Below, one piece after another: positions 4,942 to 22,021 of a DNA stretch of 32,000 bases. The stretch covers positions 615,622 to 647,621 of the forward strand of contig CP113000.1 of the NCBI GenBank assembly GCA_026625185.1. Direction: 5' to 3'. The DNA is from Thermodesulfobacteriota bacterium. Lineage in GTDB: Bacteria; Desulfobacterota; WTBG01; JAGOGO01. A model generated the notes under the pieces. The model had not been told where the DNA came from. It worked only from the letters and a program-made list of their open reading frames with translations, and ran no database searches. Position numbers and translations under genes: made by a program. Position 1 is the first letter of the stretch, and the number at the start of each line of letters is the position of its first letter.

Positions 4942-6465
4942 ATGAATCGTTTTGATTTCAACGGGGTTTTTACGTATGACCTGGCCAACAACCACCAGGG
5001 CGACCTGGAGCATGCGCTCAATATTATTAATGCCGTGGGTGAGGTGAACAGACAGGCCGCCGTTCGTGGCGCGCTCAAGTTCCAATTCAGGCAATTGGAC
5101 ACCTTTATTCACCCTGATTACAAGCAAAGAAAAGACGTAAAACATATTCCAAGATTCATGGAAACGGCCTTGACCAAGCAGCAGTATGCGACGCTCACCA
5201 AAGCGGTCATCAAAAACGGCATGCACACCATGGCCACTCCCTTCGATGAAGAATCAGTGGACCTCATTCTGAATTTGGATATCGAGATCATCAAAGTAGC
5301 CAGTTGCTCAGCCACTGACCGGCCACTCCTCGAACGGATCACCCAGGTGAACAAACCGGTAATTGTCTCAACTGCAGGGTTGAGTTTGGACAAGATCGAC
5401 CGACTGGTGAGTTTTCTTGAATCAAAAAACATGCAGTTCGCTTTGATGCACTGTGTGGCCATCTATCCCACCCCCAACGACAAATTGGGATTGAATCAGA
5501 TCAATGTGCTGAAAGAAAGGTTCCCTCATGTGCCCATCGGGTTCTCCACTCATGAAGAGCCGGATAACTATTCCTCCATCCAAATCGCATATGCAAAAGG
5601 GGCGACGCTGTTTGAAAGGCACGTAGGCATGGAAACAGAAAAACATCAATTGAACAGTTATTCCTCCAGACCTGAGCAAATAGCCCGATGGATTGATGCG
5701 TACAAGCAGGCCGTGGCAGCCTGTGGTGGAGAACATCGCATTCCTGCCTCCCCTGATGAGATCGCCTCTTTACGTTCACTCATGCGAGGGGTATTCGTAA
5801 GAGCGCAGATCAAGAAAGGCGATAAACTGAACAGGGACAAAGTATATTTTGCGATGCCCCTGCATGACCGGCAACTCCCAAGTGGTGACTGGTTTGACGG
5901 GATCGCAGCCGACCGGGACTATGCACCAAACGAGCCCGTCAATGAGGCGGTGGCAAACCTCCCATTGCCGGCGGAAGAGATCATTTACCATATTTTACTT
6001 CAGGTGAAGGGCATGCTGAACAATGCGAGGATACATATCGGCAAAGAGACTTCCGTTGAGTTGTCCCACCATTATGGTCTTGAGCGATTCAGAGAGTTTG
6101 GGGCGGTCATCATGAACTGCATCAACCGGAAGTACTGCAAGAAGTTGGTCATCCAGCTTCCACGGCAGAAGCATCCGTATCATTTTCACAAGCGCAAAGA
6201 GGAAACCTTCCAGTTGTTGTACGGGGATTTGGAGGTAGAACTGGACGGAAAGAGGATCAAGCCACAGGTAGGGGATACCATTCTGGTGAGGCCGGGTGAA
6301 TGGCACAAATTTCATACCCTTGACGGGGCAATTTTTGAGGAAGTGAGCACCACCCACTTTGATAATGACTCGTTCTACGAGGATGAGCGGATAGCAAGGC
6401 TCGCCAGGGAAGCGAGAAAAACCGTCATCACTGTTTGGAAGGTAATCGAAAAGAAAACCATTTGA
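4942..6465 (+). CDS. NeuB-family nonulosonic (sialic-acid-like) acid synthase fused to a C-terminal cupin domain
   Basis: NeuB-like blocks ANNHQGDLEHA, LKFQ, IIKVASCSATD, HCVAIYPTP and GFSTHE. An SAF-like segment (VFVRAQIKKGDKLNRDKVYF) follows. An extra ~130 aa carries a cupin pattern: HPYHFHKRKEETFQLLYGDLEVEL...GEWHKFHT (from about 6170). Confidence 0.8.
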   Translation: MNRFDFNGVFTYDLANNHQGDLEHALNIINAVGEVNRQAAVRGALKFQFRQLDTFIHPDYKQRKDVKHIPRFMETALTKQQYATLTKAVIKNGMHTMATPFDEESVDLILNLDIEIIKVASCSATDRPLLERITQVNKPVIVSTAGLSLDKIDRLVSFLESKNMQFALMHCVAIYPTPNDKLGLNQINVLKERFPHVPIGFSTHEEPDNYSSIQIAYAKGATLFERHVGMETEKHQLNSYSSRPEQIARWIDAYKQAVAACGGEHRIPASPDEIASLRSLMRGVFVRAQIKKGDKLNRDKVYFAMPLHDRQLPSGDWFDGIAADRDYAPNEPVNEAVANLPLPAEEIIYHILLQVKGMLNNARIHIGKETSVELSHHYGLERFREFGAVIMNCINRKYCKKLVIQLPRQKHPYHFHKRKEETFQLLYGDLEVELDGKRIKPQVGDTILVRPGEWHKFHTLDGAIFEEVSTTHFDNDSFYEDERIARLAREARKTVITVWKVIEKKTI

Positions 6466-8176: not shown

Positions 8177-10186
8177 TCAAGGTAGGGAGGGATATGTAAT
8201 GCTACCGTAAGAATTCTCTTTGGGAATATGGTGGAGACGATTTTTATAAAGATACCACGGCAGCAGCGAGTGCGCGAGCGCGTCTCGATAAAGATCGGGG
8301 TTGAATTTTGATTTTGTCCCTTCCACTTTACCATTTTTATGGGTGTATTCTATCGGCGGCAAACCAGGTCGCTGGACAATCAGCTGTTTTTCTACCATAA
8401 AAGCATTGGTCGAACTATACTGCATGACTGCCCTGCCGGGTACATTTCCAGGAAGGGTGAGAAGTGGCCGCCCGATAAGAGGATGTTTGGTGCTCAGGCC
8501 CATAAGATCAAGGAGCGTGGGGGGCATATCAATCTGGCTTGCTAACTTGTAATATTTTTCCGACCTAATGCCCGGCCCGATAATGAGGCCGGGGATATGG
8601 AACTTTTTAATGGGGATCAACTCCATGCCCTTAAGCCTCGTGGAGTGGTCAGCGATGACAAGAAACAAGGTATTTTTATAGTAGGCTTCTTTTTTCGCGA
8701 ATTTGAAAAAGTTGCCGAGCGCGTAGTCAGCGTACTTCACGGCGTTATAACGAGTATTTTTGGGAGACTCATAAAGTGCGATTCGGCCATCAGGGAATTC
8801 AAATGGGATATGATTGGAAGTGGTTAGGATAAGTCCAAAAAAAGGCCTATCGCCGTGAGCCCGAAAAATAGTATTGGCTTTCGAAAATAAATCCTCGTCA
8901 GATACTCCCAACGTGCCTTTAAAAACAGGGTTATCATAATTGTCTTGTTCATAGACCTTTTGAAAACCATTACCAAGGAAAAACCCGCGCATGTTGTCGA
9001 AGCGGCTTTCCCCACCATAGACAAACTCAGTGTGGTAACCATTGCGAAGGAGCAAGTCTGCTATAGTGAAGAAGTCTTTCTGCGCCAAACCGAGTCTTAC
9101 CACGCTTTCTCCCAAGGTTGGCAGGAAGCCAGAAATAATCGCTTCAATGGCCCGAATGGTCCGGGTCCCGGTGCTGTAAAGGTTCATAAAAAGAACCCCT
9201 TCTTTGCTCAGCTCATCAAGGTTTGGCGTAAGCGGTATCCCGCCGAGACAACCCACATACTCGGCCCCAAGGCTCTCTTCAATGATGATGACCAAGTTAA
9301 GCGGACGTAGCCTCGGGTAGCTGGATTGCTGGTGGTGCAGAAGCGGTATCGAGGGATCAGTAAAGTCTTTCTCGGCGATACCGCTGCTTTTTCGTACCCG
9401 GGAGAGCATCTCGCGGGGATCCATTCTTCCATAAAATTTTCCAGGATCTTTTTCCATTTTGTAGCGACTAAAAAAAGCATAAACCAAAGTGAACGTGGAA
9501 TTGAGGGCAAGCTGGTTGGCAAGGTGACTCGATGAAAAAGCCCCGTCACTAGGGCTGGCCGCCAGATTTCCAGAACTTAAGGGGATGACAATGGTGAGCA
9601 AAGGTATAATGAGCAACAAACTGAGCGCCCTTTGCAGAACAGAATAATTCCCATAGCTCTCGAACAGTTTTTGAAAAAACCGAAAAATAAGCCACCCGAT
9701 TATCAAGGTGAACGCGATGCCCCCGATCACTATGAGTGTGTAGCCCCGAAGCACCATAGTAAACACTTCGCTCCCCTGGACGATATATTCCAAGATGAGA
9801 CCGTCAAGACGGGTAAAAAACTCAGCCATAAAAGGGAAAGTGGCGATTTCCAGAAACACAAAGAGAGTAAAAAAAAGGGCAAAATAAGAAGAGAATATCC
9901 AGCGAAGGCTTCTCGTAATCTTGCCGGGAAGAAGGATCAGCAAGAAGGCTGGCAGGACTATGCTGAAACAAAGAACAATGGTATCCATCCACATGCCGAT
10001 AGGGAACAAAAGAGCGTAGTTTGGGATATCCCCGATCTGTGGAAAGAAGGTAAAGCAAAGCACTGCCCTAAAAACCGAAAAAGTGCACAGGCAGAGGAAA
10101 TAAAAAATGATAACCGGACTAAAAAGGCCGACGAAACAGACCGCCTTTGACCAAGGGTTGCGGTAATTTGATTGCTTTTGAGACAT
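8177..10186 (-). CDS. LtaS / phosphoglycerol-transferase-type membrane enzyme (N-terminal polytopic domain + extracytoplasmic sulfatase-fold domain)
   Basis: About 230 aa of TM helices are followed by a sulfatase-fold domain: NLVIIIEESLGAEYVG (metal-binding E), YSTGTRTIRAIEA (candidate Thr nucleophile), LVIADHS and TTSNHIPF. The RBS is weak. Confidence 0.8.
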   Translation of the reverse strand: MSQKQSNYRNPWSKAVCFVGLFSPVIIFYFLCLCTFSVFRAVLCFTFFPQIGDIPNYALLFPIGMWMDTIVLCFSIVLPAFLLILLPGKITRSLRWIFSSYFALFFTLFVFLEIATFPFMAEFFTRLDGLILEYIVQGSEVFTMVLRGYTLIVIGGIAFTLIIGWLIFRFFQKLFESYGNYSVLQRALSLLLIIPLLTIVIPLSSGNLAASPSDGAFSSSHLANQLALNSTFTLVYAFFSRYKMEKDPGKFYGRMDPREMLSRVRKSSGIAEKDFTDPSIPLLHHQQSSYPRLRPLNLVIIIEESLGAEYVGCLGGIPLTPNLDELSKEGVLFMNLYSTGTRTIRAIEAIISGFLPTLGESVVRLGLAQKDFFTIADLLLRNGYHTEFVYGGESRFDNMRGFFLGNGFQKVYEQDNYDNPVFKGTLGVSDEDLFSKANTIFRAHGDRPFFGLILTTSNHIPFEFPDGRIALYESPKNTRYNAVKYADYALGNFFKFAKKEAYYKNTLFLVIADHSTRLKGMELIPIKKFHIPGLIIGPGIRSEKYYKLASQIDMPPTLLDLMGLSTKHPLIGRPLLTLPGNVPGRAVMQYSSTNAFMVEKQLIVQRPGLPPIEYTHKNGKVEGTKSKFNPDLYRDALAHSLLPWYLYKNRLHHIPKENSYGSITYPSLP

Positions 10187-10470: not shown

Positions 10471-10956
10471 ATGAATAATAGCAATAAGTCACCAATTTAT
10501 AAAGTTTATCTACCCCATAAAGCAGATGTGCGGGCCAAAGAACAAAAACATCAATCCGGTAAAAGAAAACGGCTTAAAGACACCATGATTGAAAAATACG
10601 TAATACAAAAACTAAAACTCGGTTGGTCTCCTGAGCAAATAGCCGGTAGACTCCCTCTCGACTGCCCCTCTATTACCTATGACAACGGCTCAGAGAATAT
10701 TGAACATCAAAAAATCAACGAAGCGCTCGGTACACAGTCATACTTCTGTAATCCCTACCACAGCTGGAAAAAAGGCTCGGTCGAATATCCCATCGGCCTT
10801 ATCCGGCGCTTTTTGCCAAAAAAAACCGACTTTGCTATAATTAAGCCCTCTCAACTAAAAACAATCGAAAACCTTTTAAATAACAGACCAAGAAAATGTT
10901 TAAACTTTAAAACCCCACCAGAGGTCTTTTCCTCTTGCGTTGCACTTGCTGGTTGA
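10471..10956 (+). mobile_element. IS30-family transposase remnant (5'-truncated and internally deleted pseudogene)
   Basis: It reads LGWSPEQIAGRL, then jumps straight to TYDNGSENIEH...YFCNPYHSWKKGSVEYPIGLIRRFLPKKTDF...LNNRPRKCLNFKTPPEVF. Intact IS30 transposases have an N-terminal HTH and roughly 100+ aa (including the first catalytic D) between WSPEQI and DNGSE. The WEKG / ENTNG blocks are degraded to WKKG / EYPIG. Confidence 0.8.
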
Positions 10957-11077
10957 ATGTAGCAAAATATTTTCTTTACAAGCACATAATTTTTTATAAA
11001 ATCACCGGAAGATTACTGGGTAAAATTTTGCGGATTAAATTCATACCAGGCCGAAAGACAAGGAGAGTCGCAATATA

Positions 11078-12445
11078 ATGATCCGTCTGTTACAATTCCA
11101 CGAGAATTCCAAGGTCATTTCAGGCTGGCTGGCTTTGGCAGGCCCGGCGCTCAAGTGGTTGACACCCGCGAGACGGCGAACCATCCTGATTGCGGGAGCG
11201 CTCTGGATCGCCTTGAAACGTCCTCTGAAACAAATGACGAAAGCCCATGTCTGGTCAGAGGTCCCCCCCGATCTAATCACCGCAATCGTTGTGACCATCA
11301 TCATTTTTGCCTTCCTGTGGTTTTGCTACTGGTTGGCGTTAAAATTCACATCCATGCCATCATTTATCCGCCGCAATCCCCAGTTGTGTCTTCACGCGTT
11401 TTTTTGGATCATTCTGGTCGTTCTCTGGAACACTTCGCCTGAAGGTGGAATTTGGCGCGTTGTCCTGGTGGTCCTCGCCATCAATCTCCCTTTTCTCCTC
11501 TGGCGTCTGGGGTACATGCTGATCTCAGCCAAACATAACAAAGTGGCAGGCACACGGTTCTGGGAACATCTGATGTATCTCGCCCCTGTTTATGGCGGAA
11601 CAAATACCCCCTACGGAAAGGGTCTGGATTTCCTTTCACGCCATGAAGCCAAGGACGAGGAAGCACTTGCCCGCTCCCAGCTCGCGGGAATCAAACTGCT
11701 CATCCTGGCTGTCCTCTGGCAAGGGGTCAGATTAATTATGGATGGACTGGTGTTCGGTATAAACAATCCGGCAAATCAGGTCTTGGGGGGATTTACGCTT
11801 GCAGTGCCTCGCCTTGGCCAATTACTCAAACAACCCGAGATAGCTTCAATCGGAACGGCGTGGGTGAGCCTTTACTGTGAACTTATATATAACGTGCTCA
11901 ATCTTGCAGTGAGAGGTCATCAGATCATAGGAATTCTAAGACTTTCCGGTTTCTATGTATTCCGGAATACTTATAAGCCCTTGCTGGCAGAAACAATAGT
12001 CGAATTCTGGAACCGCTATTACTACTACTTCAAGGAAATTATGGCAGACTTTTTTTTCTTCCCGACCTTTGTAAGTTGGTTTCGCAAACACTTCGTGCTC
12101 CGGCTCTTTTCCGCGGTTTTCATGGCGGCTTTCTTCGGTAACATGTACTATCACCTGATCAGGCTGAAGTACCAACTCATCCAGGCTGATTTTAACGCCA
12201 TTTGGCTTACCCTGCACGCACGATTGTTTTACTGTTTTCTGCTGAGTTTAGGTATCTTTATTTCGATGCTACGTGAGCACCGGCGGGGGAGAAAGCCACG
12301 GCCGCGACGTGGCTTGATGCAACGAGGTCTGTCTATTTTTGGCGTGTGGACCTTCTTCGCAATAATCAATATTTGGAACCAAAAAGGAGGCATTCCGTTC
12401 GTTCAGGTGACGAAATTTTTTCTTCGACTCATAGGTATTATTTAA
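11078..12445 (+). CDS. polytopic membrane protein, MBOAT-like (DltB/AlgI-type membrane-bound O-acyltransferase candidate)
   Basis: Hydrophobic throughout. EFWNRYYYYFKEIMADFFFFP (from 12002) aligns by eye with the MBOAT block FWRRWHISLSxWxRDYxYIP. FFGNMYYHLI (His codon 12152-12154) aligns with the LWHG catalytic-His block. RBS aaggagag lies upstream. Confidence 0.55.
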   Translation: MIRLLQFHENSKVISGWLALAGPALKWLTPARRRTILIAGALWIALKRPLKQMTKAHVWSEVPPDLITAIVVTIIIFAFLWFCYWLALKFTSMPSFIRRNPQLCLHAFFWIILVVLWNTSPEGGIWRVVLVVLAINLPFLLWRLGYMLISAKHNKVAGTRFWEHLMYLAPVYGGTNTPYGKGLDFLSRHEAKDEEALARSQLAGIKLLILAVLWQGVRLIMDGLVFGINNPANQVLGGFTLAVPRLGQLLKQPEIASIGTAWVSLYCELIYNVLNLAVRGHQIIGILRLSGFYVFRNTYKPLLAETIVEFWNRYYYYFKEIMADFFFFPTFVSWFRKHFVLRLFSAVFMAAFFGNMYYHLIRLKYQLIQADFNAIWLTLHARLFYCFLLSLGIFISMLREHRRGRKPRPRRGLMQRGLSIFGVWTFFAIINIWNQKGGIPFVQVTKFFLRLIGII

Positions 12446-12467
12446 AACTCTTGTGGAGGCAATATCC

Positions 12468-13988
12468 ATGTTGCTTAAATTAAACGTTGGAAATCTTTTT
12501 GAACCGATCAGCGGACGGCGTTGGGATCAAGCGGAAATCAGCTCCCAGGTAACTCGGCGTATCGCCCGATTCAAAAAAAACGGTCTCGCTCGGGGTGATC
12601 GTGTCTTTCTTCCTTTCGGCAACCGTCTGGAGTTCTTCGCCGAGCTTCTTGCCATCTGGCGGTTGGGCGGCTGTGCGATTCCAATCGACAGCCGGCTTAC
12701 CGCATTTGAAGTTGAAAACCTGGCTCGCGTCGCCACCCCCCGACTCGCTGTCGTGGATGAGGAAACTTCAGCAAATATTATCCGGGTCCTTACAGCCTCC
12801 GGAGCCAGGATCATCCAAACCACCGAAACTGGCACAGATGAATCCGTTGACAGCTTGTTCTGTCTTGAAAGCGACGCACTCATGCTTTTTACTTCCGGTT
12901 CCACAGGCAATCCCAAAGGTGTGCTCCATACCCATCGTTCACTCCGCGCTCGCTGGATGTCGTTGCGCGATCACCTTGGAGTGGTTGCTTTTAAGAAGAC
13001 CCTGTGCATGTTACCGACCCACTTTGGCCATGGCTTGATATGCAACAGTCTTTTCCCATGGCTTGCGGGCCAGGATCTTTACATCACACAACCATTCAAG
13101 CCTGAGATTGTCATGCGCTTAGGAACACTGATTGACGAAAACGGAATCACGTTTGTGTCGTCGGTACCTGCCATTTGGCGACTCGCCCTGAAACTATCCC
13201 GTCCTCCTCAACGAGGTACGCTCCAACGGGTGCATTGCGGCTCAGCACCTCTGTCCGCCCACATGTGGGAGGAAATTCGCCGATGGACGGGTACGAGAAA
13301 CATTTGCAACGCCTATGGAATCACGGAGACCGGAAGTTGGGTTGCCGGGCTCGTAGACGCGGATGTTCCCGCCCAAGATGGCCTGATTGGGCAAGGCTGG
13401 GGAGCCATTATCCAAATAGTGCACACCAATGACACCGCACAACTTTTTAATCCGGAGCTCAGCTGTCCAGCTGGTGAATCTGGTTTTGTATGGTTAAATA
13501 CGCCAGCCCTTATGAAGGGCTATTTCCAGCGTGATGATCTTACACAACAGGCTGTTGTTGCCGGCTGGTTTTTGACTGGTGACATTGGTTTTATTGATGA
13601 TCACGGCCGGCTTGTACTGTTGGGGAGGGAGCGCGATGAAATCAATAAGGGCGGGATGAAAGTCTTTCCATCCGACATTGATGCCGTGGTGGAGCGTTTC
13701 GAACACGCTACCGATGTCTGTACCTTTGCGCTCGACGACCCCCTGTACGGGCAGAACGTAGGTATGGCGGTTGTCCTTGCAAATCAGAGCGATGAAGTTA
13801 TTCGCGCCCTGCATCAGTGGATGAAAGTCCACCTAGCCGAACCGAAGATGCCGGTGCGCTGGTGGGTGATCGATTCGATTCCCCGGACTTCGCGCGGCAA
13901 GCTTAACCGAGACGCGGTTAAGGCCGCTTATCAGAACCAACCACCACTTGACCTGCCGGGTATTTTGGGAAAGGGGGTCATCTCATGA
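12468..13988 (+). CDS. ANL-superfamily adenylating enzyme (acyl/aminoacyl-AMP ligase, DltA-position)
   Basis: FTSGSTGNPKG (A3), YGITET (A5), TGDIG (A7), GRERDEINKGGMKVFP (A8) and PRTSRGK (A10). The track start is GTG 12453, but ATG 12468 sits 8 nt after GGAGG and is the more likely start. Confidence 0.85.
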   Translation: MLLKLNVGNLFEPISGRRWDQAEISSQVTRRIARFKKNGLARGDRVFLPFGNRLEFFAELLAIWRLGGCAIPIDSRLTAFEVENLARVATPRLAVVDEETSANIIRVLTASGARIIQTTETGTDESVDSLFCLESDALMLFTSGSTGNPKGVLHTHRSLRARWMSLRDHLGVVAFKKTLCMLPTHFGHGLICNSLFPWLAGQDLYITQPFKPEIVMRLGTLIDENGITFVSSVPAIWRLALKLSRPPQRGTLQRVHCGSAPLSAHMWEEIRRWTGTRNICNAYGITETGSWVAGLVDADVPAQDGLIGQGWGAIIQIVHTNDTAQLFNPELSCPAGESGFVWLNTPALMKGYFQRDDLTQQAVVAGWFLTGDIGFIDDHGRLVLLGRERDEINKGGMKVFPSDIDAVVERFEHATDVCTFALDDPLYGQNVGMAVVLANQSDEVIRALHQWMKVHLAEPKMPVRWWVIDSIPRTSRGKLNRDAVKAAYQNQPPLDLPGILGKGVIS

Positions 13989-14254
13989 GCGAAAAGCGGG
14001 AACAACGGCGACAGGGACTGGTCCGTTTTCTGCGAGACATTCAGAAAGCAGGTCTTCCAGTGGACCGTTTAGGTGACACCGATGAATTGATTGCCTCGGG
14101 TTTAATTGATTCTTTGGCAATTCTGGAGATTGTGCTCTATCTCGAACAAACCTATGGTATTGATTTCTCGGTCCTTGGTATCGATCGGGATGAGTTCAGC
14201 ACTATTGGAAACATCCTCGACCTAATCGAACGGCAGAAACCCGAAGTGAATTAG
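13985..14254 (+). CDS. acyl/peptidyl carrier protein (89 aa)
   Basis: GLIDSLAILEIV phosphopantetheine-attachment motif (Ser codon 14111-14113). The ATG overlaps the ligase stop (ATGA at 13985-13988), implying translational coupling. Confidence 0.8.
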   Translation: MSEKREQRRQGLVRFLRDIQKAGLPVDRLGDTDELIASGLIDSLAILEIVLYLEQTYGIDFSVLGIDRDEFSTIGNILDLIERQKPEVN

Positions 14255-14302
14255 TCACTGCTGTTTTGTCACCCAAATCTATCATTTAACAATGAGGTGC
14301 AC

Positions 14303-15175
14303 ATGTCTTTGAGTCCATCAGGCACAACGATCCCATCGCCCGGCAACCGGTTGCGAGAAACCATGAAAAACCGGGATATCCTCCCGTTTATTGGGATCTA
14401 CGATGTCTTCTCGGCATCGCTTGCCGGCCGTCACTTTGACACTCTGTTCGTTAGTGGCTTCGGCTTTGCAGCCAGTTACTATGGTCTGCCTGATATAGGT
14501 TTCATTGCGTGGCCGGACATTGTCGCTTTGCTGCAACGCATCCGAACCGTGTTGCCTACGCATCATATCTTGGTTGACATCGACGACGGTTATTGTGATA
14601 CCGAAGTGGCCTGTCATGTGGTTTCCTTGCTTGAAGCATCGGGCGCATCGGGTGTTGTCCTCGAGGATCAGAAACGTCCACGCCGGTGCGGCCATTTTGA
14701 TGGAAAACACATCATGGAACTCGAGGAGTATCTCGAAAAGCTCCGAAGAGTACTTGCCACCAGGCGCGATCTGTTTGTCGTGGCGCGGACTGACAGCTCT
14801 GACCCAGCAGACATCGTGCTTCGCATGCAGGCATTTGCAGAAGCTGGCGCAGACGCTGTGCTAATCGACGGCCTGAAGTGCCTCGACACCATCCGCACAC
14901 TGAGGGGGCTTGTAAACCGACCATTCGGTTTCAATCAGATCGCCGGCGGAAAATCACCGTCTTACAGACTAAGTGAACTACGTGAGGCTGGTGTCTCTTT
15001 GGTGATTTATAGTACGCCGTGCCTTTTCTCGGCACAGTCGGCGATCGAGGATGCCATGAACGCGATAAAGGCAAACGATGGCTCCCTTGCCGGAAGTCGA
15101 GTTGGTGTTCAGGACTGCACAAAGATCCTTTCTGATAATCTCGCCCGGCGCTACACTGCTGACATAAAACAATAG
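14303..15175 (+). CDS. isocitrate lyase / PEP mutase superfamily enzyme, lyase-type (methylisocitrate-lyase-like)
   Basis: IGIYDVFSASLA...SGFG...GLPDIG, DIDDGYCD metal site, and gating loop LEDQKRPRRCGHFDGK (Cys codon 14687-14689). The EDQ...KRCGH pattern is the lyase form, not the EDK...NS form of true PEP mutase. ATG 14303 follows GAGG; the track begins at GTG 14297. Confidence 0.8.
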   Translation: MSLSPSGTTIPSPGNRLRETMKNRDILPFIGIYDVFSASLAGRHFDTLFVSGFGFAASYYGLPDIGFIAWPDIVALLQRIRTVLPTHHILVDIDDGYCDTEVACHVVSLLEASGASGVVLEDQKRPRRCGHFDGKHIMELEEYLEKLRRVLATRRDLFVVARTDSSDPADIVLRMQAFAEAGADAVLIDGLKCLDTIRTLRGLVNRPFGFNQIAGGKSPSYRLSELREAGVSLVIYSTPCLFSAQSAIEDAMNAIKANDGSLAGSRVGVQDCTKILSDNLARRYTADIKQ

Positions 15176-15463
15176 GGTAATAGCTGGGCATCCTTTACAC
15201 GGTCTAATTGAAAATAGTTGTTATGGTTAATTTCTAGGAAAAACTTGTTGAATTTACAAATAGATATATTCGGTTAAAAGGTTTTCAACAATGGTTAACG
15301 CTTTCCATAACTAAATGTTTTTTTTAACTAATTGTTCTAATTTGGACGGTCAATTTCCTTTGGTTTTATTGGGGGTTAATTCATAGGAAACCAACAATAG
15401 AACCCATACTGAAATTTCCCTTATATTCTAAAAGTTATTTGGGGCGCTGTTTAGTTTTACTGC

Positions 15464-15491
15464 AATAAAAAAGGGCCTCAAATTGAGGCCC
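15464..15491 (-). terminator. rho-independent terminator for minus-strand transcription
   Basis: GGGCCTC(A)...(T)GAGGCCC perfect GC-rich stem (15473-15491). On the minus strand it is followed by TTTTTTATT (complement of 15464-15472). There is no U-run on the plus-strand side. Confidence 0.6.
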
Positions 15492-15508
15492 TTGCCATAA
15501 ATTATCCT

Positions 15509-15563
15509 GCTACCATTTTGCTACCATAACAAGCCAAAACAAGATAAAACAAGGGACAATAAG
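15509..15563. repeat. phased short direct repeats: 2x GCTACCAT (11-bp spacing), then 4x AA(C/T)AAG at exact 10-bp spacing
   Basis: GCTACCAT at 15509 and 15520. AACAAG at 15528, 15538 and 15548, and AATAAG at 15558. AACAAGGGA (15548-15556) recurs inverted as TCCCTTGTT at 15608-15616. Confidence 0.75.
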
Positions 15564-15636
15564 AGAAGCTAACTTACCAATTTCTTGCTTATTCTTTCTT
15601 CCTGTTATCCCTTGTTCGGTGTATGCAAGCACCTGT

Positions 15637-15907
15637 TTATCTTGCAGTCCTTTGTCCCTCCAAGTGCTTGGTTCCTTGACTCGGGTCCATGGGGATGCTA
15701 TAAGCTTTTGCCAAACTGGTCTTGACGCCTAAATCTTCTTGGGTTTTGGGTGCGATCCCCGGTCTTGCGCGTTATCTCATCCGTGACCGGCCACAAGTCA
15801 TGATCTCTGACATGGATTACGCTCAAAATGGCCTTCGTGAAAGGAAAAACGCTTAAAAAAAGCGCCGATTGCTCAAATTTCTCATGGCAAGAATCGTCTC
15901 GACATAT
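15637..15907 (-). pseudogene. decayed C-terminal fragment of a tyrosine recombinase (integrase), split over two frames
   Basis: One minus frame reads ...FTKAILSVIHVRDHDLWPVTDEITRKTGD... (HDLW at 15802-15791, where integrases have HDLRHT-x-A-x2-L-x2-G). A second frame continues GIAPKTQEDLGVKTSLAKAYSIPMD, resembling the i-x2-vQ-x-lLGH-x5-T-x2-Y-x-H tail. No intact ORF remains. The similarity was judged by eye only. Confidence 0.35.
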
Positions 15908-16046
15908 CTATCCCGCAATCATAGCCTCAGCCTCCCACATTTTGGGGCCAGTTTCATATTGACATACAAAACTGCTTGTCCTACACTTTCTCCACGAAAA
16001 AACAATGCCTTATCAGATTATCAAATCTCTTTGACCTAAGTTGGCT

Positions 16047-17213
16047 ATGAAAATACTGATTGTGGACACTGATAAAATATTGCCAGGACCATCATATTCC
16101 GGAAGTTCGCTGGTTCGTTGGGGGCTAATAAAAGGATTGAAAAATCAGAATGTTGACGTTGGATTTTACTCAGCCAGTCCTGGTAGCAATGAGTTTGATA
16201 AATATGATGGTTCGGAGATTGCTTCTGAAATTGGGGTGAATCAAGTATGGTTAAGACAGCCAAACCCGAAATTTTCTAAGGAGGAAAGCGTACGCAAATT
16301 GCAGGGTCCCTTGGATGAATTTAGACCAGATGTTGTTCTTGCTTTAGGGATGGAATCTTTGGAGTTTGTTCGCAATACAAGATATCGAGGGAAAGTCGGA
16401 ATAGTATGGGTTGATTTAGAATTCCTCCCAAGCCTTTACCGAATTTATAATACATTTATTTACGGAGGTGCGTGTAAAGGAATAATAAAAGATCTCATTA
16501 AAACCTGGAATAGATATAGAAAGGTAATTAATATTTATCCTAAGGCTGACTTTATAATAAACCACGCTGCACATCACGCTGATTGGCATCGTCGAACGCA
16601 TGGAAAGAAAACTTTGTATGTTCCTAACCCAGTTCCACCCCTTTTTAAGGAAAATCCGCACAAAGAAGTCTCGAAGCCGGCACGTTTTATTTTGTTGGGT
16701 GGTCTGGGCAGTGTCTCAACAACGAGCGGTTTAGGGTGGTTTGCACGACATGTTTATCCGTTAATCGAACCAAACCTAATAAATGGTGAAATTGAAATTC
16801 ATCTTATAGGGCGGCACACGCTTAGAGCACCATTTGTAAACAAGATGCGACATCTTATCTATAGAGGATATGTGGAAGATTTGGTTATTGAAATGCTGAA
16901 GGCCACCGCATTATTGGTTCCTACGCCGATAACGATCGGGTTCAGAACGAGAATATTGGAGGCCTTTCGACATGGCGTTGCTGTCATTGCACATGAGGCA
17001 AATGCGGTAGGGATGCCGGAACTGAAACACGAACATAATGCCTTGGTTAGTAAAAAAGGCAAGGATTTTGCGGGTGCTATTCTCAGGCTCACCAATAAAC
17101 CTATTGATGCAATAACAATCGGGAACAATGGATTTAGTGATTTTTCTCGCCAACTGAATTCGGATTTCGTGGGCTCTAAAATCTTGGAATTCCTTGATAA
17201 AGAAGTCCTGTAG
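16047..17213 (+). CDS. GT-B fold glycosyltransferase (GT4-like)
   Basis: N-terminus MKILIVDTD...SGSS...L...G-x-V. The C-terminal part, LLVPTPITIGFRTRILEAFRHGVAVIAHEANAVGMPELKHEHNALV, matches the GT4 E-x7-E region. The gene is clearly AT-richer than its neighbours. The track start is TTG 16041; ATG 16047 is preferred. Confidence 0.7.
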   Translation: MKILIVDTDKILPGPSYSGSSLVRWGLIKGLKNQNVDVGFYSASPGSNEFDKYDGSEIASEIGVNQVWLRQPNPKFSKEESVRKLQGPLDEFRPDVVLALGMESLEFVRNTRYRGKVGIVWVDLEFLPSLYRIYNTFIYGGACKGIIKDLIKTWNRYRKVINIYPKADFIINHAAHHADWHRRTHGKKTLYVPNPVPPLFKENPHKEVSKPARFILLGGLGSVSTTSGLGWFARHVYPLIEPNLINGEIEIHLIGRHTLRAPFVNKMRHLIYRGYVEDLVIEMLKATALLVPTPITIGFRTRILEAFRHGVAVIAHEANAVGMPELKHEHNALVSKKGKDFAGAILRLTNKPIDAITIGNNGFSDFSRQLNSDFVGSKILEFLDKEVL

Positions 17214-17391: not shown

Positions 17392-18042
17392 ATGGGAATA
17401 CGATCGATTGTCTTTGACTTTGACGGAACGCTTATCGATTCCAACCGTCTGAAATATGAAGCTTATTTCGAGCTTTTTACTGACCAGGGACACCAGGCAC
17501 AAATTATTCGCGAGGTCCTTTCCGAGAATTTTGAGCAAACCCGCTACGTAATCCTGGAAAAGATTGTTCGGCGGCTTGGGATCAAGGATCATACTTACAT
17601 GAAGAGTAGGGTCAGCAAGCTGGCCGAACAATACAACGACATTGTTGTAGCAGGCGCAAAGACGTGTCCCGAAAAAATTGGAGCAGAAAAAACACTCAAG
17701 AAATTAGCGGCGATCTATCGCCTTTATGTGAGTTCAACTACCCCTGAATCCAGTCTGAAAGAGATCATTCGATTCAGAAAATGGGATGGCTATTTTTGTG
17801 GGGTATTTGGCTATCCGCATAAAAAAACCGAGACTCTCCTGCGCATCATGGCGTTAGAAAAGCTGAGAAGCGATGAGGTGCTTGTGGTGGGCGATGGTGA
17901 ATCAGATAGGGAATCAGCAGTGAAAAATGCGTGTCCGTTCGTTCATGTGACGGAAGGGTTTAATCTCGAGCAGATTGATCAGATACTGGTGACCTATACA
18001 AAAAACGATACTCTTCTTCGGGTAGGAAAGGTGAGTAACTAA
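17392..18042 (+). CDS. HAD-superfamily phosphatase
   Basis: Motif I IVFDFDGTLIDS, motif II YVSSTT, motif IV VVGDGESD. The RBS gaggc lies 8 nt upstream. The stop overlaps the next gene's ATG by 1 nt (taATG at 18040-18044). Confidence 0.8.
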   Translation: MGIRSIVFDFDGTLIDSNRLKYEAYFELFTDQGHQAQIIREVLSENFEQTRYVILEKIVRRLGIKDHTYMKSRVSKLAEQYNDIVVAGAKTCPEKIGAEKTLKKLAAIYRLYVSSTTPESSLKEIIRFRKWDGYFCGVFGYPHKKTETLLRIMALEKLRSDEVLVVGDGESDRESAVKNACPFVHVTEGFNLEQIDQILVTYTKNDTLLRVGKVSN

Positions 18043-18773
18043 TGCTCAAAGAAAAAAGTATCTTGGTAGTGGTGCCGGCGCGCGGCGGCAGCAAGGGAGT
18101 GAAACTTAAAAATATCAGAACCATAAGCGGCGTGCCCCTTGTCGCCCTGGTGGGACAGGTGGTGAAAGAGCTTCCCTATGTGGACAGGGCGGTCGTGTCA
18201 ACCGACCATCCTGAGATAGCAGCGATTGCCCGAGGATCAGGTTTGGACGTTCCCTTCATGCGGCCGGAGCGCTTGTCCGGAGACATGGTAGACGATTGGT
18301 CTGTGCTGCACCATGCCTTGACTGAATGCGAGAAGATTGATAACCGCAGATACGACATTGTGTTAATGCTGCAACCAACGTCTCCCTTCCGCAAACCGCA
18401 CCATGTCACTGCAGCATTGGAAAAGCTCATCACGGGCGGATACGATGCCGTATGGACAGTGAGCGAGACCGACTCCAAGGCACATCCCTTAAAACAGCTC
18501 GTAATTCAAAAGGATATTTTGGATTTCTATGACCCGGCCGGCGCGAACATAATTGCCAGGCAGCAGCTTTTTCCCGTATACCATAAAAACGGCGTGGCCT
18601 ATGTCATGACCAGAGATTGCATTCTCAATAAGAAAAACATTAAGGGTGAACGGACATCTTTCGTGGTAATCGATGAATTTATGGTGAACATTGATACCGA
18701 GTTTGATTTCAAAATCGCCGAACTCGTCCTGCAGCAAAAGGACTACCCGGAAAGGGATTACAGAAATAGTTAA
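18042..18773 (+). CDS. CMP-nonulosonate (acylneuraminate-type) cytidylyltransferase, NeuA family
   Basis: VVVPARGGSKGVKLKNI...G-x-PL N-terminal P-loop-like motif, LQPTSPFR, and NGVAYV, all typical of CMP-NeuAc/CMP-Kdo-type synthetases. Confidence 0.85.
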   Translation: MLKEKSILVVVPARGGSKGVKLKNIRTISGVPLVALVGQVVKELPYVDRAVVSTDHPEIAAIARGSGLDVPFMRPERLSGDMVDDWSVLHHALTECEKIDNRRYDIVLMLQPTSPFRKPHHVTAALEKLITGGYDAVWTVSETDSKAHPLKQLVIQKDILDFYDPAGANIIARQQLFPVYHKNGVAYVMTRDCILNKKNIKGERTSFVVIDEFMVNIDTEFDFKIAELVLQQKDYPERDYRNS

Positions 18774-19319: not shown

Positions 19320-20855
19320 ATGAAAAATTTGACAAACCGTCAACCTCAAAGCCCCGGGCTTGGAGAAGTAATTAAGCGCATTGCTGATACAGATCCAGCG
19401 GCTCCGGCTATAGTGTCTTCAAAATATAATTCATTCTCCTATTCACAACTTGTTTGGCAGATCGAGCACGTTGCCGGTGCGCTGAGCCAATCAGGATTGA
19501 GAAATTCTGCCCGAATTGCTATTGCCGTGAAGGATGCCCCGCCGGCCGCATTGGCAATCGTAGCGGTTGCATGTTCAGCCGCGGCTATTCCCTTAGACCA
19601 GAACCTGGCAGCGGCAGAAATTGAAATGCGACTGAAACTTTTGGACGTGGATGCAGTGTGTGTGCTTGCCGGTGAAACAACTTTAACCAGAACTGTAGCT
19701 GAAAAGCACGGGATTGCCATTATCGAACTAATGCCGAAAGATAAGCGCGAACTTGCATTCTCAGTGTATGCCCCAAAAATTTCAACTAAAAATCAGATTG
19801 GTGATTCTGCCTTGGAAAGTGTGGCGGTCATTTTGCAAACCTCCGGAACTACCGCAGAGCCAAAATTAGCCCCCGGTCGTCATTCCGGTTTGTTGTTTTC
19901 CGCGGAACGCACTCGCAACTGGTTCAATCTCGATAAAAATGACCGATGCTTGAGTATTGCGCCACCCTACTTCAGTCATGGCCTGACCTTCACCATACTT
20001 GCGCCGCTTCTTTCGGGCGGCAGCGTGGCGTTTCCAGTGAGTCTAACCGAGGTAAATTTAACGGAATGGTTTGAGGAGCTAAAACCAACATGGTTTTCAG
20101 CCTCGCCGACAATGCAATTGGTGATTTCTGAAAAATTAGGCTTAACCACATCAGGCTTGAAGCATCACCTTCGATTTGCCGTTTCCGGTGGAGCACCCCT
20201 GCCGGAAAATGTGCGATCAAGTTTGCAAGAAGCGTTGGGGGTTCCTGTTCTTGCAGAGTATGGTATGACGGAAGCCAGTCAGGTTTCCGCAAATTTGCCT
20301 CAGCCGGGACTATATAAATCGGGCACCGTCGGGATTCCGCCCGCGGATACAGTGATTATAGTCGGGCCGAATGGTGAAAATTTGCCTCAAGGCGAAAAAG
20401 GCGAAATTTTAGTTCGTGGTCCAAATGTAATGACCGGGTATCTAAACGGCCCGGAGTTGAATAAAGCAGCTTTCTCACAGGGCTGTTTTCGGACCGGAGA
20501 CATTGGTAGTTTTGATGAAGATGGCTTTTTAATGATTCACGGCAGAATCAAGGAGCTCATCAACCGCGGAGGCGAAAAAATTTCACCATTCGAGATTGAA
20601 GCGGTCCTACTAAAACACCCGGATGTTTTGGAGGCTGTGGCTTTTGCGGTTGCACACCCGCGGTTGGGTGAGGATGTTGGAGCTGCGGTGGTGTTGCGCC
20701 CGAACGCAACAGTGGATGCTGGGGGATTTCGTCGATTTATGGGTGCACACCTTTCATGGAACAAAGTGCCCAGACGAGTCCATATTAGGGAAAGCATCCC
20801 CAAAGGACTGGGGGGAAAGGCGCTGCGCAAGAAACTCAGTGAGGAATATTCATGA
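19320..20855 (+). CDS. ANL-superfamily adenylating enzyme (acid-thiol ligase type)
   Basis: QTSGTTAEPK (A3), YGMTEA (A5), TGDIG (A7), GRIKELINRGGEKISPFEIE (A8), PKGLGGK (A10). Confidence 0.85.
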   Translation: MKNLTNRQPQSPGLGEVIKRIADTDPAAPAIVSSKYNSFSYSQLVWQIEHVAGALSQSGLRNSARIAIAVKDAPPAALAIVAVACSAAAIPLDQNLAAAEIEMRLKLLDVDAVCVLAGETTLTRTVAEKHGIAIIELMPKDKRELAFSVYAPKISTKNQIGDSALESVAVILQTSGTTAEPKLAPGRHSGLLFSAERTRNWFNLDKNDRCLSIAPPYFSHGLTFTILAPLLSGGSVAFPVSLTEVNLTEWFEELKPTWFSASPTMQLVISEKLGLTTSGLKHHLRFAVSGGAPLPENVRSSLQEALGVPVLAEYGMTEASQVSANLPQPGLYKSGTVGIPPADTVIIVGPNGENLPQGEKGEILVRGPNVMTGYLNGPELNKAAFSQGCFRTGDIGSFDEDGFLMIHGRIKELINRGGEKISPFEIEAVLLKHPDVLEAVAFAVAHPRLGEDVGAAVVLRPNATVDAGGFRRFMGAHLSWNKVPRRVHIRESIPKGLGGKALRKKLSEEYS

Positions 20856-21916
20856 CCAGCAATGAACAAGCAAATTTGAGTGATGTTGCCTTGGAAAAAG
20901 AACTTCTTGGAATGTGGCGACGTGAGCTCAAGGATGATAATTTGACTATTGACGACGACTTTTTTGAGTGTGGGGGTGATTCCTTGCTCGCAATAAAATT
21001 ATTGCTTGAGATCGAGCAGCTGACAGGCAAAACATTCCCACCCTCAATAATTTTTGAAACCGGTACTGTTCGGCAGTTGTTGGAGAGAGTTATAAAAACC
21101 GATAAAGCTCAACCTCAAGTGTCCGTCCTTGTAGGTCCTGAACAGGGGAAAATAATTCATTTCTTTCATGGCCGTTTCACTCGTGGCGGGGTTACGGTTA
21201 AAGTTTTCTCCAAAATGCTTGGCACTGATTATCGTATCCATGCGATGTCCCCCCATTTTCCTCATGAAGGGAAGTTGCCCAACTCGATAGAAGACATGGC
21301 AAAAGAAAGATTACAGAAAATCCTCGAAGCGCAGCCAAAGGGCCCCTATGTTCTGGTTGGACAGTGTAACGGCGCCTTGGTGGCGTTTGAAGCGGCAAGG
21401 ATCCTGGTTTCAATGGGTGAAGAAGTAAAAGCTGTGGTGATGGTGGATCCGGGCATAATGTCAGTCAGGAGGTCCGCGCAGTTCATTTTTATGGCTGCGG
21501 ACTTTTTTATGCGTCTCATGGTTATTCAAAAAAACCAGCGGCGTAAGCACTTGCTCTGGGTCTCTATCAAGCTCGCGCGCACGGACCGCTGGTGGCGTCG
21601 TGCACTATTTTTCTTTCGGAAAAAAGCGTCTCCAAAGCGATCATCGAAAAAAAAGCCCCACCTTCAAAAGCTTAGCCATGAATGGAAAGAACTCCAAAAT
21701 TTAAAACAGCATTACAACAATGCGTTACTTGACTATAAACCTCTTTCGTTGAATGTGCCCCTGTTATATATTGCACTAAGATTTAGCGGGTATGCGTGGC
21801 GGCGGATTACCAAGGACACTGTTTTTATAAATATATTCCGTGGGCGTCATAACCCCTGGGGCGAAACTTATGGCCCTTATCTCGCCAATAAGATACGGGA
21901 ATTTATTAATTTCTGA
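20852..21916 (+). CDS. carrier protein (PCP) fused to a thioesterase-like alpha/beta hydrolase domain with Cys at the nucleophile position
   Basis: FFECGGDSLLAIKL (Ser codon 20981-20983). IHFFHGRFTRGG is a TE-type N-terminal strand. The nucleophile elbow reads VGQCNGA (TGT at 21365-21367) where GxSxG is expected. The C-terminal FRGRHNPW is the candidate catalytic His. The ATG overlaps the ligase stop (ATGA 20852-20855). Confidence 0.7.
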   Translation: MTSNEQANLSDVALEKELLGMWRRELKDDNLTIDDDFFECGGDSLLAIKLLLEIEQLTGKTFPPSIIFETGTVRQLLERVIKTDKAQPQVSVLVGPEQGKIIHFFHGRFTRGGVTVKVFSKMLGTDYRIHAMSPHFPHEGKLPNSIEDMAKERLQKILEAQPKGPYVLVGQCNGALVAFEAARILVSMGEEVKAVVMVDPGIMSVRRSAQFIFMAADFFMRLMVIQKNQRRKHLLWVSIKLARTDRWWRRALFFFRKKASPKRSSKKKPHLQKLSHEWKELQNLKQHYNNALLDYKPLSLNVPLLYIALRFSGYAWRRITKDTVFINIFRGRHNPWGETYGPYLANKIREFINF

Positions 21917-22021
21917 TATATATATGAATAAAATATCAAACAATGCAGGGTACGATATCAGCCTGTCATGTGAAAAGACAGCAGCGTTAACTGTCGCTTC
22001 TAACTATTGAGTGTTTGTGCT

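Follow-up and report, generated by a model that had tools for sequence, protein, structure and literature searches.

Can a Gram-negative bacterium use a dedicated carrier protein to feed an acyl group to a membrane-bound transferase? Among MBOAT pathways, to our knowledge, only Dlt is known to take the group that it transfers from a carrier protein, and Dlt counts as a speciality of Gram-positive bacteria. The question is raised by a stretch of 32,000 nucleotides from a Thermodesulfobacteriota bacterium (assembly GCA_026625185.1, contig CP113000.1; the whole stretch is called the window hereafter), in which four packed same-strand genes at positions 11078–15175 encode a membrane protein, an ANL adenylating enzyme, a small carrier protein and a C–C lyase. 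A sequence-only reading had likened the first three to DltB, DltA and DltC and had proposed that they move an acyl group other than D-alanine onto an envelope polymer. Having followed up this proposal, we give roughly an even chance to the reading that the cassette is an MBOAT module fed by a carrier protein, which transfers a small polar non-amino acid to a periplasm-facing envelope acceptor in Gram-negative bacteria. Our analysis shows the gene content, conservation, fold, motif correspondence and neighbourhood statistics; which way the acyl group travels, what acid and acceptor take part, and how the last step proceeds without an SGNH partner or an acyl-shuttle tyrosine peptide are inferred.

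Layout of the cassette

We re-checked the positions of the open reading frames (ORFs) and re-translated them; the ORFs, the motif codons (FWNRYYYY, His359 and Ser43) and an ATGA overlap between two of the genes matched what had been read from the sequence. The genes and key codons of the cassette are as follows.

11078–12445, plus strand: MBOAT-fold membrane protein, 455 aa, proposed trans-membrane acyltransferase (fold model, Foldseek, motifs)
12005–12028, plus strand: FWNRYYYY motif codons of the membrane protein (re-translation)
12152–12154, plus strand: His359 codon, in GNMYYHL, proposed catalytic histidine (re-translation, alignment)
12453–13988, plus strand: ANL adenylating enzyme, ORF of 511 aa (PF00501 and PF13193)
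13011–13046, plus strand: ANL motif A4, LPTHFGHGLICN, putative part of the acyl pocket (invariant in orthologues)
13985–14254, plus strand: DltC-like carrier protein, 89 aa (PF00550)
14111–14113, plus strand: carrier Ser43 codon in GLIDSL, phosphopantetheine attachment (re-translation)
14297–15175, plus strand: C–C lyase of the isocitrate lyase (ICL)/phosphoenolpyruvate (PEP)-mutase superfamily, 292 aa (PF13714)
14687–14689, plus strand: lyase catalytic Cys131 codon, within RRCGH at 14681–14695

A ribosome-binding site, AAGGAGAG, lies at 11060–11067, before the ATG at 11078 of the membrane-protein gene, and a gap of 7 nt separates that gene from the ANL ORF. The ANL stop codon and the carrier start codon overlap as ATGA (13985–13988), which, with the PF00501 and PF00550 matches described below, upholds the translational coupling noted earlier and marks the ligase and carrier as a dedicated pair. 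The start of the ANL gene had been placed at GTG 12453; we consider ATG 12468 more likely to be the true start, because GGAGG precedes it and the 506-aa product equals the orthologues in length. For the lyase, ATG 14303 is the more likely true start.

The membrane protein is predicted to be a remote MBOAT

The window membrane protein, whose sequence recurs unchanged (100% identity) as a hypothetical protein in a Thermodesulfobacteriota metagenome-assembled genome (MAG), matched no family in Pfam (at E ≤ 0.1) or NCBIfam. The MBOAT profile, PF03062, found no match at E ≤ 10 in 67 homologues or at E ≤ 1 in 10 divergent representatives; a family profile searched against PDB sequences recovered no MBOAT, its sole match (E 0.45) being a chance one; and a profile search for bridging relatives returned only family members, all of them strong, among the 150 matches listed. 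We then modelled the protein using AlphaFold2 on the 67-sequence alignment (pLDDT 87, pTM 0.82). When this model was compared with the PDB using Foldseek, the top nine matches were all MBOATs (DltB, PORCN, HHAT and MBOAT7; probability 0.97–1.00, TM-score 0.40–0.56), the best being DltB 6bug_C (E 3.3e-4, TM-score 0.52/0.56), and non-MBOAT folds appeared only at E > 1.

For the motif comparison, authentic DltB sequences were gathered using a DltB sequence as bait; the bait shared 99% identity with the B. subtilis DltB entry of the database, and PF03062 was present in every match. Aligning the family alignment to the DltB alignment with hhalign gave a probability of 26%, with a core, G-x5-N-x2-K-P-x8-F-W-N-R-[Y/W]-[Y/H], that is the MBOAT signature. 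Pairwise BLASTP against DltB picked out the same FWNR segment (E 8e-4), in which FWNR[Y/Y] of the membrane protein aligns with FWNR[W/H] of DltB, and by alignment FWNRYYYY is the counterpart of the MBOAT FWxRWH signature. MAFFT profile merges, in both local and global modes, equated His359 with the catalytic His328 of DltB and Tyr315 with DltB His281, in line with the earlier remark that a tyrosine stands where most MBOATs have their first histidine. Like the catalytic histidine of MBOATs, His359 lies in a hydrophobic stretch, ~45 residues after the FWxRWH-type motif.

The sequence-only reading had called the protein MBOAT-like and had stated that the lack of a significant MBOAT-family hit would count against it. 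The searches with hidden Markov models (HMMs) from Pfam and NCBIfam indeed gave no such hit, and the assignment is rescued, despite these null results, by structure prediction and motif alignment alone: the fold, the signature motif and the alignment of the catalytic histidine all held. Both the model and the motifs indicate that this family is a remote MBOAT-fold lineage lying outside current domain libraries.

Residue conservation was measured in 111 sequences (the window protein and 110 representatives of 50%-identity clusters). His359 was invariant in the 67 homologues and 95% conserved in this divergent set, and the residues conserved in at least 95% of the 111 sequences were R288, P301, F310, R313, Y317, K319, E320, R342, G354, N355, H359, Y385 and S396. 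Within the signature, R313 was 98%, Y317 100% and N312 81% conserved, and position 315, the counterpart of DltB His281, was Tyr in 68%, His in 7 of the 111 and otherwise Phe or Asn. Y317, Y357 and Y358 make up a tyrosine cluster by the putative catalytic centre. The C terminus of the family has the consensus FFLxLxGL, and even a relaxed hydrophobic-x-Y-x-x-hydrophobic pattern was found in the last 12 residues of just 2 of 224 full-length members.

At the other end of the protein, residues 1–34 (window 11078–11179) comprise a conserved N-terminal Q[FL]HE and then the invariant P30 and R32–R34; in the most divergent representatives the Q[FL]HE segment reads like IPxLDTYP. Possible roles for this Q[FL]HE/RRR segment are carrier docking or an N-terminal acyl relay. 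Weak matches to Acyl_transf_3 (PF01757) were also seen in 6 of the 67 family members (best E 4.4e-5); unlike the fold search, which found MBOATs only, these may stem from trans-membrane composition.

The ligase and carrier point to a small polar acid

The ANL enzyme matched PF00501 (E 1.7e-52) and PF13193 (E 3.4e-6), and it has both FTSGSTGNPKGV and a region aligning with the catalytic-lysine motif (SRGKL), as expected of the ANL superfamily. Its nearest solved relatives are the malonyl/methylmalonyl-CoA synthetase MatB, FadD13, feruloyl-CoA synthetase and a plant oxalyl-CoA synthetase (oxalate-CoA ligase). With B. subtilis DltA it shares 22% identity, and the Asp of DltA FSFDLS, which marks a D-alanine ligase of the DltA type, aligns with a Gly in the ANL sequence THFGHGL. 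According to the rules worked out for adenylation domains, the Asp at that DltA position binds the alpha-amino group of the substrate; its replacement by Gly therefore argues that the ANL substrate is not an amino acid, which favours the earlier proposal of an acyl group different from D-alanine.

What can be said of the acid itself comes from the pocket motifs. LPTHFGHGLICN, GSAPL and AYGITETGSW are invariant in 61 ANL orthologues, whether a lyase is present or absent. Motif anchoring shows that the ANL enzyme shares the HGL His and the GSAxL Ser with MatB and AAE3, whereas FadD13 has HVAAL and GGAPM where the ANL enzyme has THFGHGL and GSAPL. The AtAAE3 pocket consists of Val215-His216, Cys288-Ser289, Ala313-Met314 and His319, of which Ser289 and His319 contact oxalate (PMC8905533). 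By motif anchoring, rather than by residue-level alignment to 5IE0, ANL S264 matches the pocket Ser (GSAPL), H193 matches His216, and Ser295-Trp (ETGSW) falls at His319. From these motifs we infer that the substrate is no amino acid but a small acid of polar character, perhaps a short dicarboxylate; oxalate as the acyl group is neither supported nor excluded by the pocket sequence.

The carrier matched PF00550 (E 1.2e-6), so that both Pfam families that the sequence-only reading had proposed for the ligase and carrier were recovered (PF00501 at E 1.7e-52 being the other). Its best NCBIfam and PDB matches are both DltC, with scores of 31.7 and 30.1 bits that fall under the cutoffs of 68 and 52.35, and it shares 31% identity over 52 aa with B. 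subtilis DltC (E 5e-8), around GL[IL]DS and DRD-x-[FW]-x-T-x2-N-I. Among known carriers it thus appears closest to DltC. An NCBIfam lead to the OlsHI ornithine-lipid acyl carrier protein was dropped, the OlsHI pathway relying on a GH3-like enzyme in planctomycetes.

A C–C lyase that may supply the acid

The lyase matched PF13714 (E 1.9e-33) and scored 150.7 bits against prpB TIGR02317, under the cutoff of 354.4 for this (methyl)isocitrate-lyase equivalog. It keeps an RRCGH gating loop, which aligns with KKCGH/KRCGH in the five best structures, together with the acidic metal (Mg) ligands, as does the lyase branch of the ICL/PEP-mutase superfamily. Its identity to the structures of petal death protein (PDP), 2,3-dimethylmalate lyase and oxaloacetate acetylhydrolase (OAH) (1zlp, 3fa3 and 3lye) is ~30%, and the specificity residues are of the same kind: FVSGF stands where PDP has aFvSGy, and NQIAGGKSP where PDP has NMIEGGKTP and methylisocitrate lyase (MICL) has NITEFGATP, so that the N-I-T positions of MICL read N-Q-I. 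There is no Arg at the position of MICL R241 (Phe/Ser there), and a Ser is found where OAH and PDP carry Ser. Two departures are specific to the family, namely an Asp (LIDG) for a Glu kept in all five aligned structures and an Ala for the Glu of NMIEGG, and the specificity residues, including both departures, are conserved in 29 orthologues. By these residues the enzyme resembles the PDP/dimethylmalate-lyase/OAH type and not a (methyl)isocitrate lyase.

In the PDP/OAH branch, the known enzymes act on 2-alkylmalates or oxaloacetate, from which they release a 2-oxo acid or oxalate together with acetate or propionate. Given this branch chemistry, the lyase plausibly supplies the acid used by the ANL enzyme. 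For the coupling of such a lyase gene to a carrier-protein system we found no precedent. Succinate, which the OpgC analogy discussed below had suggested as the acyl group, became less likely in view of the lyase, in which the residues that bind succinate in MICL/ICL are missing.

The cassette recurs in unrelated genomic contexts

How widespread is this arrangement? A word-indexed search with the membrane protein found more than 1,000 relatives, and among the 120 listed there was no Pfam domain and no name other than hypothetical protein; an exhaustive search gave 1,056 representative clusters (50% identity) at E ≤ 1e-3, and 304 matches were confirmed when contigs representing one genome per species were scanned. 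We inspected the loci of the best 80 of these 304, almost all of which belong to MAGs of Gram-negative (diderm) bacteria. The hosts include Betaproteobacteria (Accumulibacter, Propionivibrio, Methylophilaceae, Rhodoferax and Sulfuritalea), Gammaproteobacteria, Desulfarculaceae and other 'Deltaproteobacteria', Verrucomicrobiota, Binatia and Methylomirabilota; none of the relatives found was plasmid-borne.

Neighbour statistics were taken, using family-specific searches, from those 44 loci whose flanks extend for 4.5 kb or more on each side. Beside the MBOAT-fold gene we found an ANL gene in 40, a carrier gene in 41 and a lyase gene in 19 of the 44. The survey for a conserved four-gene arrangement that the sequence-only reading had suggested thus turned up the cassette in two orders, MBOAT-ANL-carrier(-lyase) and ANL-carrier-MBOAT(-lyase or -phosphotransferase), with the lyase variable. 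The appending of a lyase to the triad, noted earlier in the window, is therefore recurrent (19/44), and the lyase is an accessory component of the cassette, present in 43% of loci and not universal. Surrounding genes differ wholly between lineages, which implies that the module is self-contained. The arrangement is far beyond chance and recurs in dozens of unrelated genomic contexts; we found no published equivalent of it in the literature.

In five MAGs of Betaproteobacteria the membrane protein is present as two paralogues, 59–64% identical (loci L032/L038, L034/L041, L024/L043, L025/L045 and L050/L060). In each of them one copy sits in a full cassette and the other is alone or followed by an LtaS-like gene, the latter pairing occurring twice. 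From this it seems that a single ANL–carrier pair can supply two transferases, which accounts for the orphan copies.

Periplasm-facing phosphotransferases recur near the cassette

The acceptor had been proposed to be an envelope polymer, and the genes around the cassette bear on this. Three features of the window are needed here.

8177–10186, minus strand: LtaS/OpgB-like membrane phosphotransferase with the sulfatase (alkaline-phosphatase) fold (PF00884, E 1.4e-50)
10471–10956, plus strand: remnant of an IS30-family transposase, truncated, lying between cassette and LtaS-like gene (NF033563, E 1.1e-35)
16041–17213: GT4 glycosyltransferase (envelope context)

The LtaS-like protein has its best NCBIfam matches in LtaS (62 bits, cutoff 970) and OpgB/phosphoglycerol transferase I (59 bits, cutoff 572), and falls outside both equivalogs. 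Its periplasmic domain matches 3LXQ, the uncharacterized Vibrio parahaemolyticus VP1736, at E 1e-127, followed by LtaS/LtaP structures, and by sequence it belongs to the uncharacterised 3LXQ/VP1736 family. In the window the IS30 remnant parts this opposite-strand gene from the cassette. At a gammaproteobacterial locus (L076), MBOAT-ANL-carrier-lyase is followed by a close homologue of the window LtaS-like gene (E 8e-159). Within 4.5 kb of the MBOAT-fold gene, LtaS-like neighbours scoring at least 240 bits occur in 11 of 82 loci, and any LtaS-like neighbour in 19 of 82; the LtaS/OpgB-like neighbours are often directly downstream and co-oriented. When alkaline-phosphatase (AP)-superfamily phosphotransferases are taken together (LtaS/OpgB-, EptA- or PigN-like), at least one lies within the same distance in 15 of the 44 full-flank loci and in 32 of all 82. 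The LtaS-like gene is a probable accessory partner of the cassette, and its genomic link to the cassette provides a functional lead for the orphan structure 3LXQ.

Further envelope genes accompany the cassette. ArnT/PMT-like glycosyltransferases lie near it in several loci, and the window as a whole is an envelope neighbourhood, with NeuB, a PseF-like cytidylyltransferase, the GT4 glycosyltransferase, an LpxL-like acyltransferase, a phospholipase D (PLD)-like protein and an ABC exporter. The recurrent periplasm-facing phosphotransferases, which were not part of the sequence-only reading, and these envelope genes point to an extracytoplasmic envelope acceptor; on this point the earlier proposal remains conditional and has gained a new line of evidence.

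Among the Verrucomicrobiota (L027, L028, L036, L052 and L065), an 830-aa PigN-like protein is encoded divergently upstream of the cassette; it combines an N-terminal Phosphodiest/alkaline-phosphatase domain with many C-terminal trans-membrane helices, as in glycosylphosphatidylinositol (GPI)-ethanolamine-phosphate transferase. Nonulosonic-acid genes in the window are split around the cassette, with a NeuB-cupin fusion upstream (4942–6465) and a pair of plus-strand genes downstream (17392–18773), where the stop codon of a HAD phosphatase (18040–18042) overlaps by its last base the ATG at 18042 of the PseF-like CMP-sugar cytidylyltransferase.

Relation to known acylation systems

The cassette resembles the dlt operon in its logic: an adenylating enzyme would load a small dedicated carrier in the cytoplasm, and the acyl group would be taken over from this carrier by a polytopic MBOAT-fold protein whose histidine is conserved. 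DltB is also the best structural match of the membrane protein, DltC is the best match of the carrier, and the FWNRxx signature is common to both membrane proteins. The differences are nonetheless many. The reference dlt operon (L085) has the order DltX-DltA-DltB-DltC-DltD, whereas the cassette has the order B-A-C or A-C-B; its hosts are Gram-negative (diderm); its membrane protein escapes the PF03062 and DltB models and has a Tyr at the position of DltB His281; its ANL enzyme lacks the amino-binding Asp; it has no DltX or DltD; and it is associated with C–C lyase and LtaS-like genes.

The absence of DltD and DltX, already remarked on in the window, was borne out when phmmer searches with B. 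subtilis queries against all ORFs of at least 20 aa in the window and 84 loci gave no match at E ≤ 1. No small ORF conserved across lineages was found either, the clusters obtained being lineage-restricted and like out-of-frame shadows of neighbouring genes, and no SGNH, DltD or AlgX-type Pfam family was present among the called neighbours of loci L001–L004, the recurrent neighbour clusters or the window.

Another system to be compared is AlmE-AlmF-AlmG, a Gram-negative envelope-modification system that adds glycine to lipid A in Vibrio cholerae; its DltA-like ligase loads a DltC-like carrier, which parallels the ligase–carrier pair of the cassette. It differs in using an amino-acid substrate, is not known to involve a lyase and ends in AlmG, which is no MBOAT-fold protein but an LpxL-type enzyme of the lysophospholipid acyltransferase superfamily that acts at the cytoplasmic face.

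In the characterised bacterial MBOAT systems, the acyl group passes to the invariant Tyr of an FxYxxF acyl-shuttle peptide, located at the C terminus of either DltX or the MBOAT, and thence to an SGNH transferase (PMC12148441). Among them, PatA/PatB, AlgI/AlgJ-F-X and WssH/WssI O-acetylate envelope polymers in Gram-negative bacteria by means of an MBOAT-fold protein that passes the acyl group outward across the cytoplasmic membrane (PMC12148441), as we propose for the cassette. They use acetyl-CoA directly, without a carrier or an ANL enzyme, whereas the cassette has both. Conversely, the MBOATs PatA, AlgI and WssH carry a C-terminal FxYxxF on two extra helices and need an SGNH partner (PMC12148441), neither of which was found for the cassette. 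The tyrosine cluster and the Q[FL]HE-RRR segment of the membrane protein are family-specific features that could replace parts of this acyl shuttle.

A looser analogy is offered by the osmoregulated periplasmic glucans, which are decorated with phosphoglycerol by OpgB, phosphoethanolamine by OpgE and succinyl groups by OpgC (PMC3818809). AP-superfamily phosphotransferases and a membrane acyltransferase there add to a periplasmic glycan, the latter contributing an acidic acyl group, and neighbours like these recur at the cassette. OpgC is an Acyl_transf_3 protein that is not known to have a dedicated ANL enzyme or carrier. Linkage to opgGH was not seen in the inspected cassette loci, and we treat the resemblance as an analogy only. 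The sequence-only reading had also asked whether the triad might be an already characterised acylation operon; the cassette is not an orthologue of the dlt/dra, alginate, cellulose or peptidoglycan acylation operons.

A proposed mechanism and its rivals

In the reading that we favour, the ANL enzyme would adenylate a small polar non-amino carboxylic acid and load it as a thioester on the phosphopantetheine arm of carrier Ser43. In ~43% of loci the PDP/OAH-type lyase probably supplies this acid by C–C cleavage of a 2-hydroxy or 2-oxo acid. The MBOAT-fold protein, using His359 with Asn355, Arg313 and Tyr317 nearby, would then receive the acyl group from the carrier on the cytoplasmic side and hand it to an acceptor on the periplasmic side of the inner membrane. 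A probable acceptor is a glycoconjugate of the envelope, or a lipid head group, which the co-localised LtaS/OpgB-, EptA- or PigN-like phosphotransferases decorate as well. The MAGs with two paralogues and a single ANL and carrier fit a donor system that serves two transferases.

Several results weigh against this reading. Membership of the MBOAT family at the HMM level is absent, PF03062 having found nothing; the hhalign probability to DltB is just 26%, and its low-confidence tail does not pair His359 with the DltB catalytic histidine. The best NCBIfam matches of the ANL enzyme are named fatty-acid-CoA ligases, though it scores far under their cutoffs. Both the SGNH partner and the FxYxxF tyrosine are absent, which leaves the final transfer step without precedent, and the phosphotransferase association is seen in only about one third of loci.

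In the main rival reading, which we regard as unlikely, the cassette would serve membrane-lipid acylation or remodelling: the ANL enzyme would be an acyl-ACP synthetase for a fatty acid, and the MBOAT-fold protein would acylate a lipid within the membrane, as do the eukaryotic LPLAT, DGAT and ACAT MBOATs or E. coli Aas. The top NCBIfam names are long-chain-fatty-acid-CoA ligase and FadD7, FadD13 is among the best PDB matches, and MBOAT7, ACAT2 and LPCAT3 also appeared in the fold search. The window encodes PLD-like and LpxL-like lipid enzymes as well. LtaS, OpgB and EptA enzymes use phospholipid donors and leave diacylglycerol over, so a candidate acceptor would be diacylglycerol or a lysolipid freed by the neighbouring LtaS/EptA-type head-group transferases. 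Against this stand the TM-scores, which are 0.52–0.56 for DltB and 0.31–0.41 for the lipid MBOATs; a carrier that is DltC-like and not AcpP-like; and the invariant ANL pocket THFGHGL/GSAPL/ETGSW, which is polar and MatB/AAE3-like, unlike that of FadD13. The ANL scores, moreover, are far below the fatty-acid-ligase cutoffs, and a small-acid lyase is frequent in the cassette, translationally adjacent to the carrier gene. We think it very unlikely that the cassette is instead a secondary-metabolite or export module, in which the ANL enzyme and carrier would build a tethered small molecule and the membrane protein would serve for export, as a scaffold or as the acyltransferase of a soluble small-molecule acceptor and not of an envelope component. 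Natural-product loci often contain stand-alone ANL–carrier pairs, a second ANL with a carrier-thioesterase fusion lies 5 kb downstream in the window, and in some genomes the cassette sits within unrelated housekeeping contexts; however, condensation, ketosynthase, thioesterase and tailoring genes do not accompany the cassette, its recurrent neighbours are envelope-modifying enzymes, and the fold of the membrane protein, which has a conserved putative catalytic histidine, is that of an acyltransferase rather than of a transporter.

The same three-part logic, together with DltB as best structural and DltC as best carrier match, could be taken to mean that a divergent dlt/dra-type D-alanylation system, or another aminoacylation system, was transferred to Gram-negative bacteria. 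We consider this almost certainly wrong: the ANL enzyme is 22% identical to DltA and has a Gly at the alpha-amino-binding Asp, DltD and DltX were not found, matches to PF03062 and to the DltB NCBIfam model are absent, and the associated C–C lyase has no role in D-alanine supply. A more specific version of the carrier-dependent module that we favour is a decoration resembling that of teichoic acids, in which the LtaS-like enzyme of the 3LXQ family would attach glycerol-phosphate, or a head group akin to it, to an acceptor in the periplasm or the outer leaflet and the cassette would esterify it with a short acidic acyl group from the lyase, such as oxalyl, malonyl or another C2–C4 acid, by a new MBOAT mechanism that dispenses with SGNH and FxYxxF and possibly involves a Tyr317 relay; in this full form we rate it quite unlikely.

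If the cassette does act as a carrier-dependent transferase, it would add a second, independent system to the carrier-dependent MBOAT pathways, one found widely among Gram-negative bacteria of the environment, with Accumulibacter and Propionivibrio from wastewater among them; it would point to a new acyl decoration of the Gram-negative envelope, and it would challenge the generalisation that bacterial MBOATs need an FxYxxF acyl-tyrosine shuttle and an SGNH partner. The family that the survey brings to light comprises more than 1,000 clusters and is invisible to current domain libraries.

Other features of the window

Two further features flank the cassette.

10975–11002, plus strand: sigma-70-like promoter candidate, TTTACA-16-TAAAAT, 10 of 12 positions (consensus match only)
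15471–15493, no strand assigned: perfect 10-bp GC-rich hairpin, in the 865-nt gap 3′ of the lyase gene

The promoter candidate lies ~75 nt 5′ of the membrane-protein gene, and a search for riboswitches or other RNA elements 5′ of the cassette gave none at E ≤ 1. The hairpin has its T-run on the minus strand, where no gene is near, and its relation to the cassette is uncertain; the gap that contains it (15176–16040) has no ORF of at least 60 aa. The IS30 remnant aligns only to positions 191–267 of the 267-position NF033563 profile (the C-terminal 77). The GC content is 0.49–0.54 in the cassette and 0.39–0.42 in the flanks (10–11 kb and 15–17 kb), and the remnant and lower-GC flanks could mark a past insertion or rearrangement.

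Farther downstream, a 465-aa ORF (26946–28343, plus strand) was considered as a paralogue of the MBOAT-fold protein and ruled out, being soluble and unrelated; it has no Pfam match and lies between the LpxL-like gene and a radical-SAM gene. The second ANL gene, whose product is 28% identical to the cassette ANL enzyme, overlaps by 4 nt a gene for a PP-binding-thioesterase fusion (19320–21916 for the pair, plus strand). This pair is followed by a Zn-alcohol dehydrogenase gene (22007–23146, plus strand) and, 3.6 kb on, by the gene for the LpxL-type lipid A acyltransferase (25511–26452, minus strand). By analogy, this second set of ligase, carrier and LpxL-like enzyme, which is unrelated to the cassette, recalls lipid A modification of the AlmEFG type.

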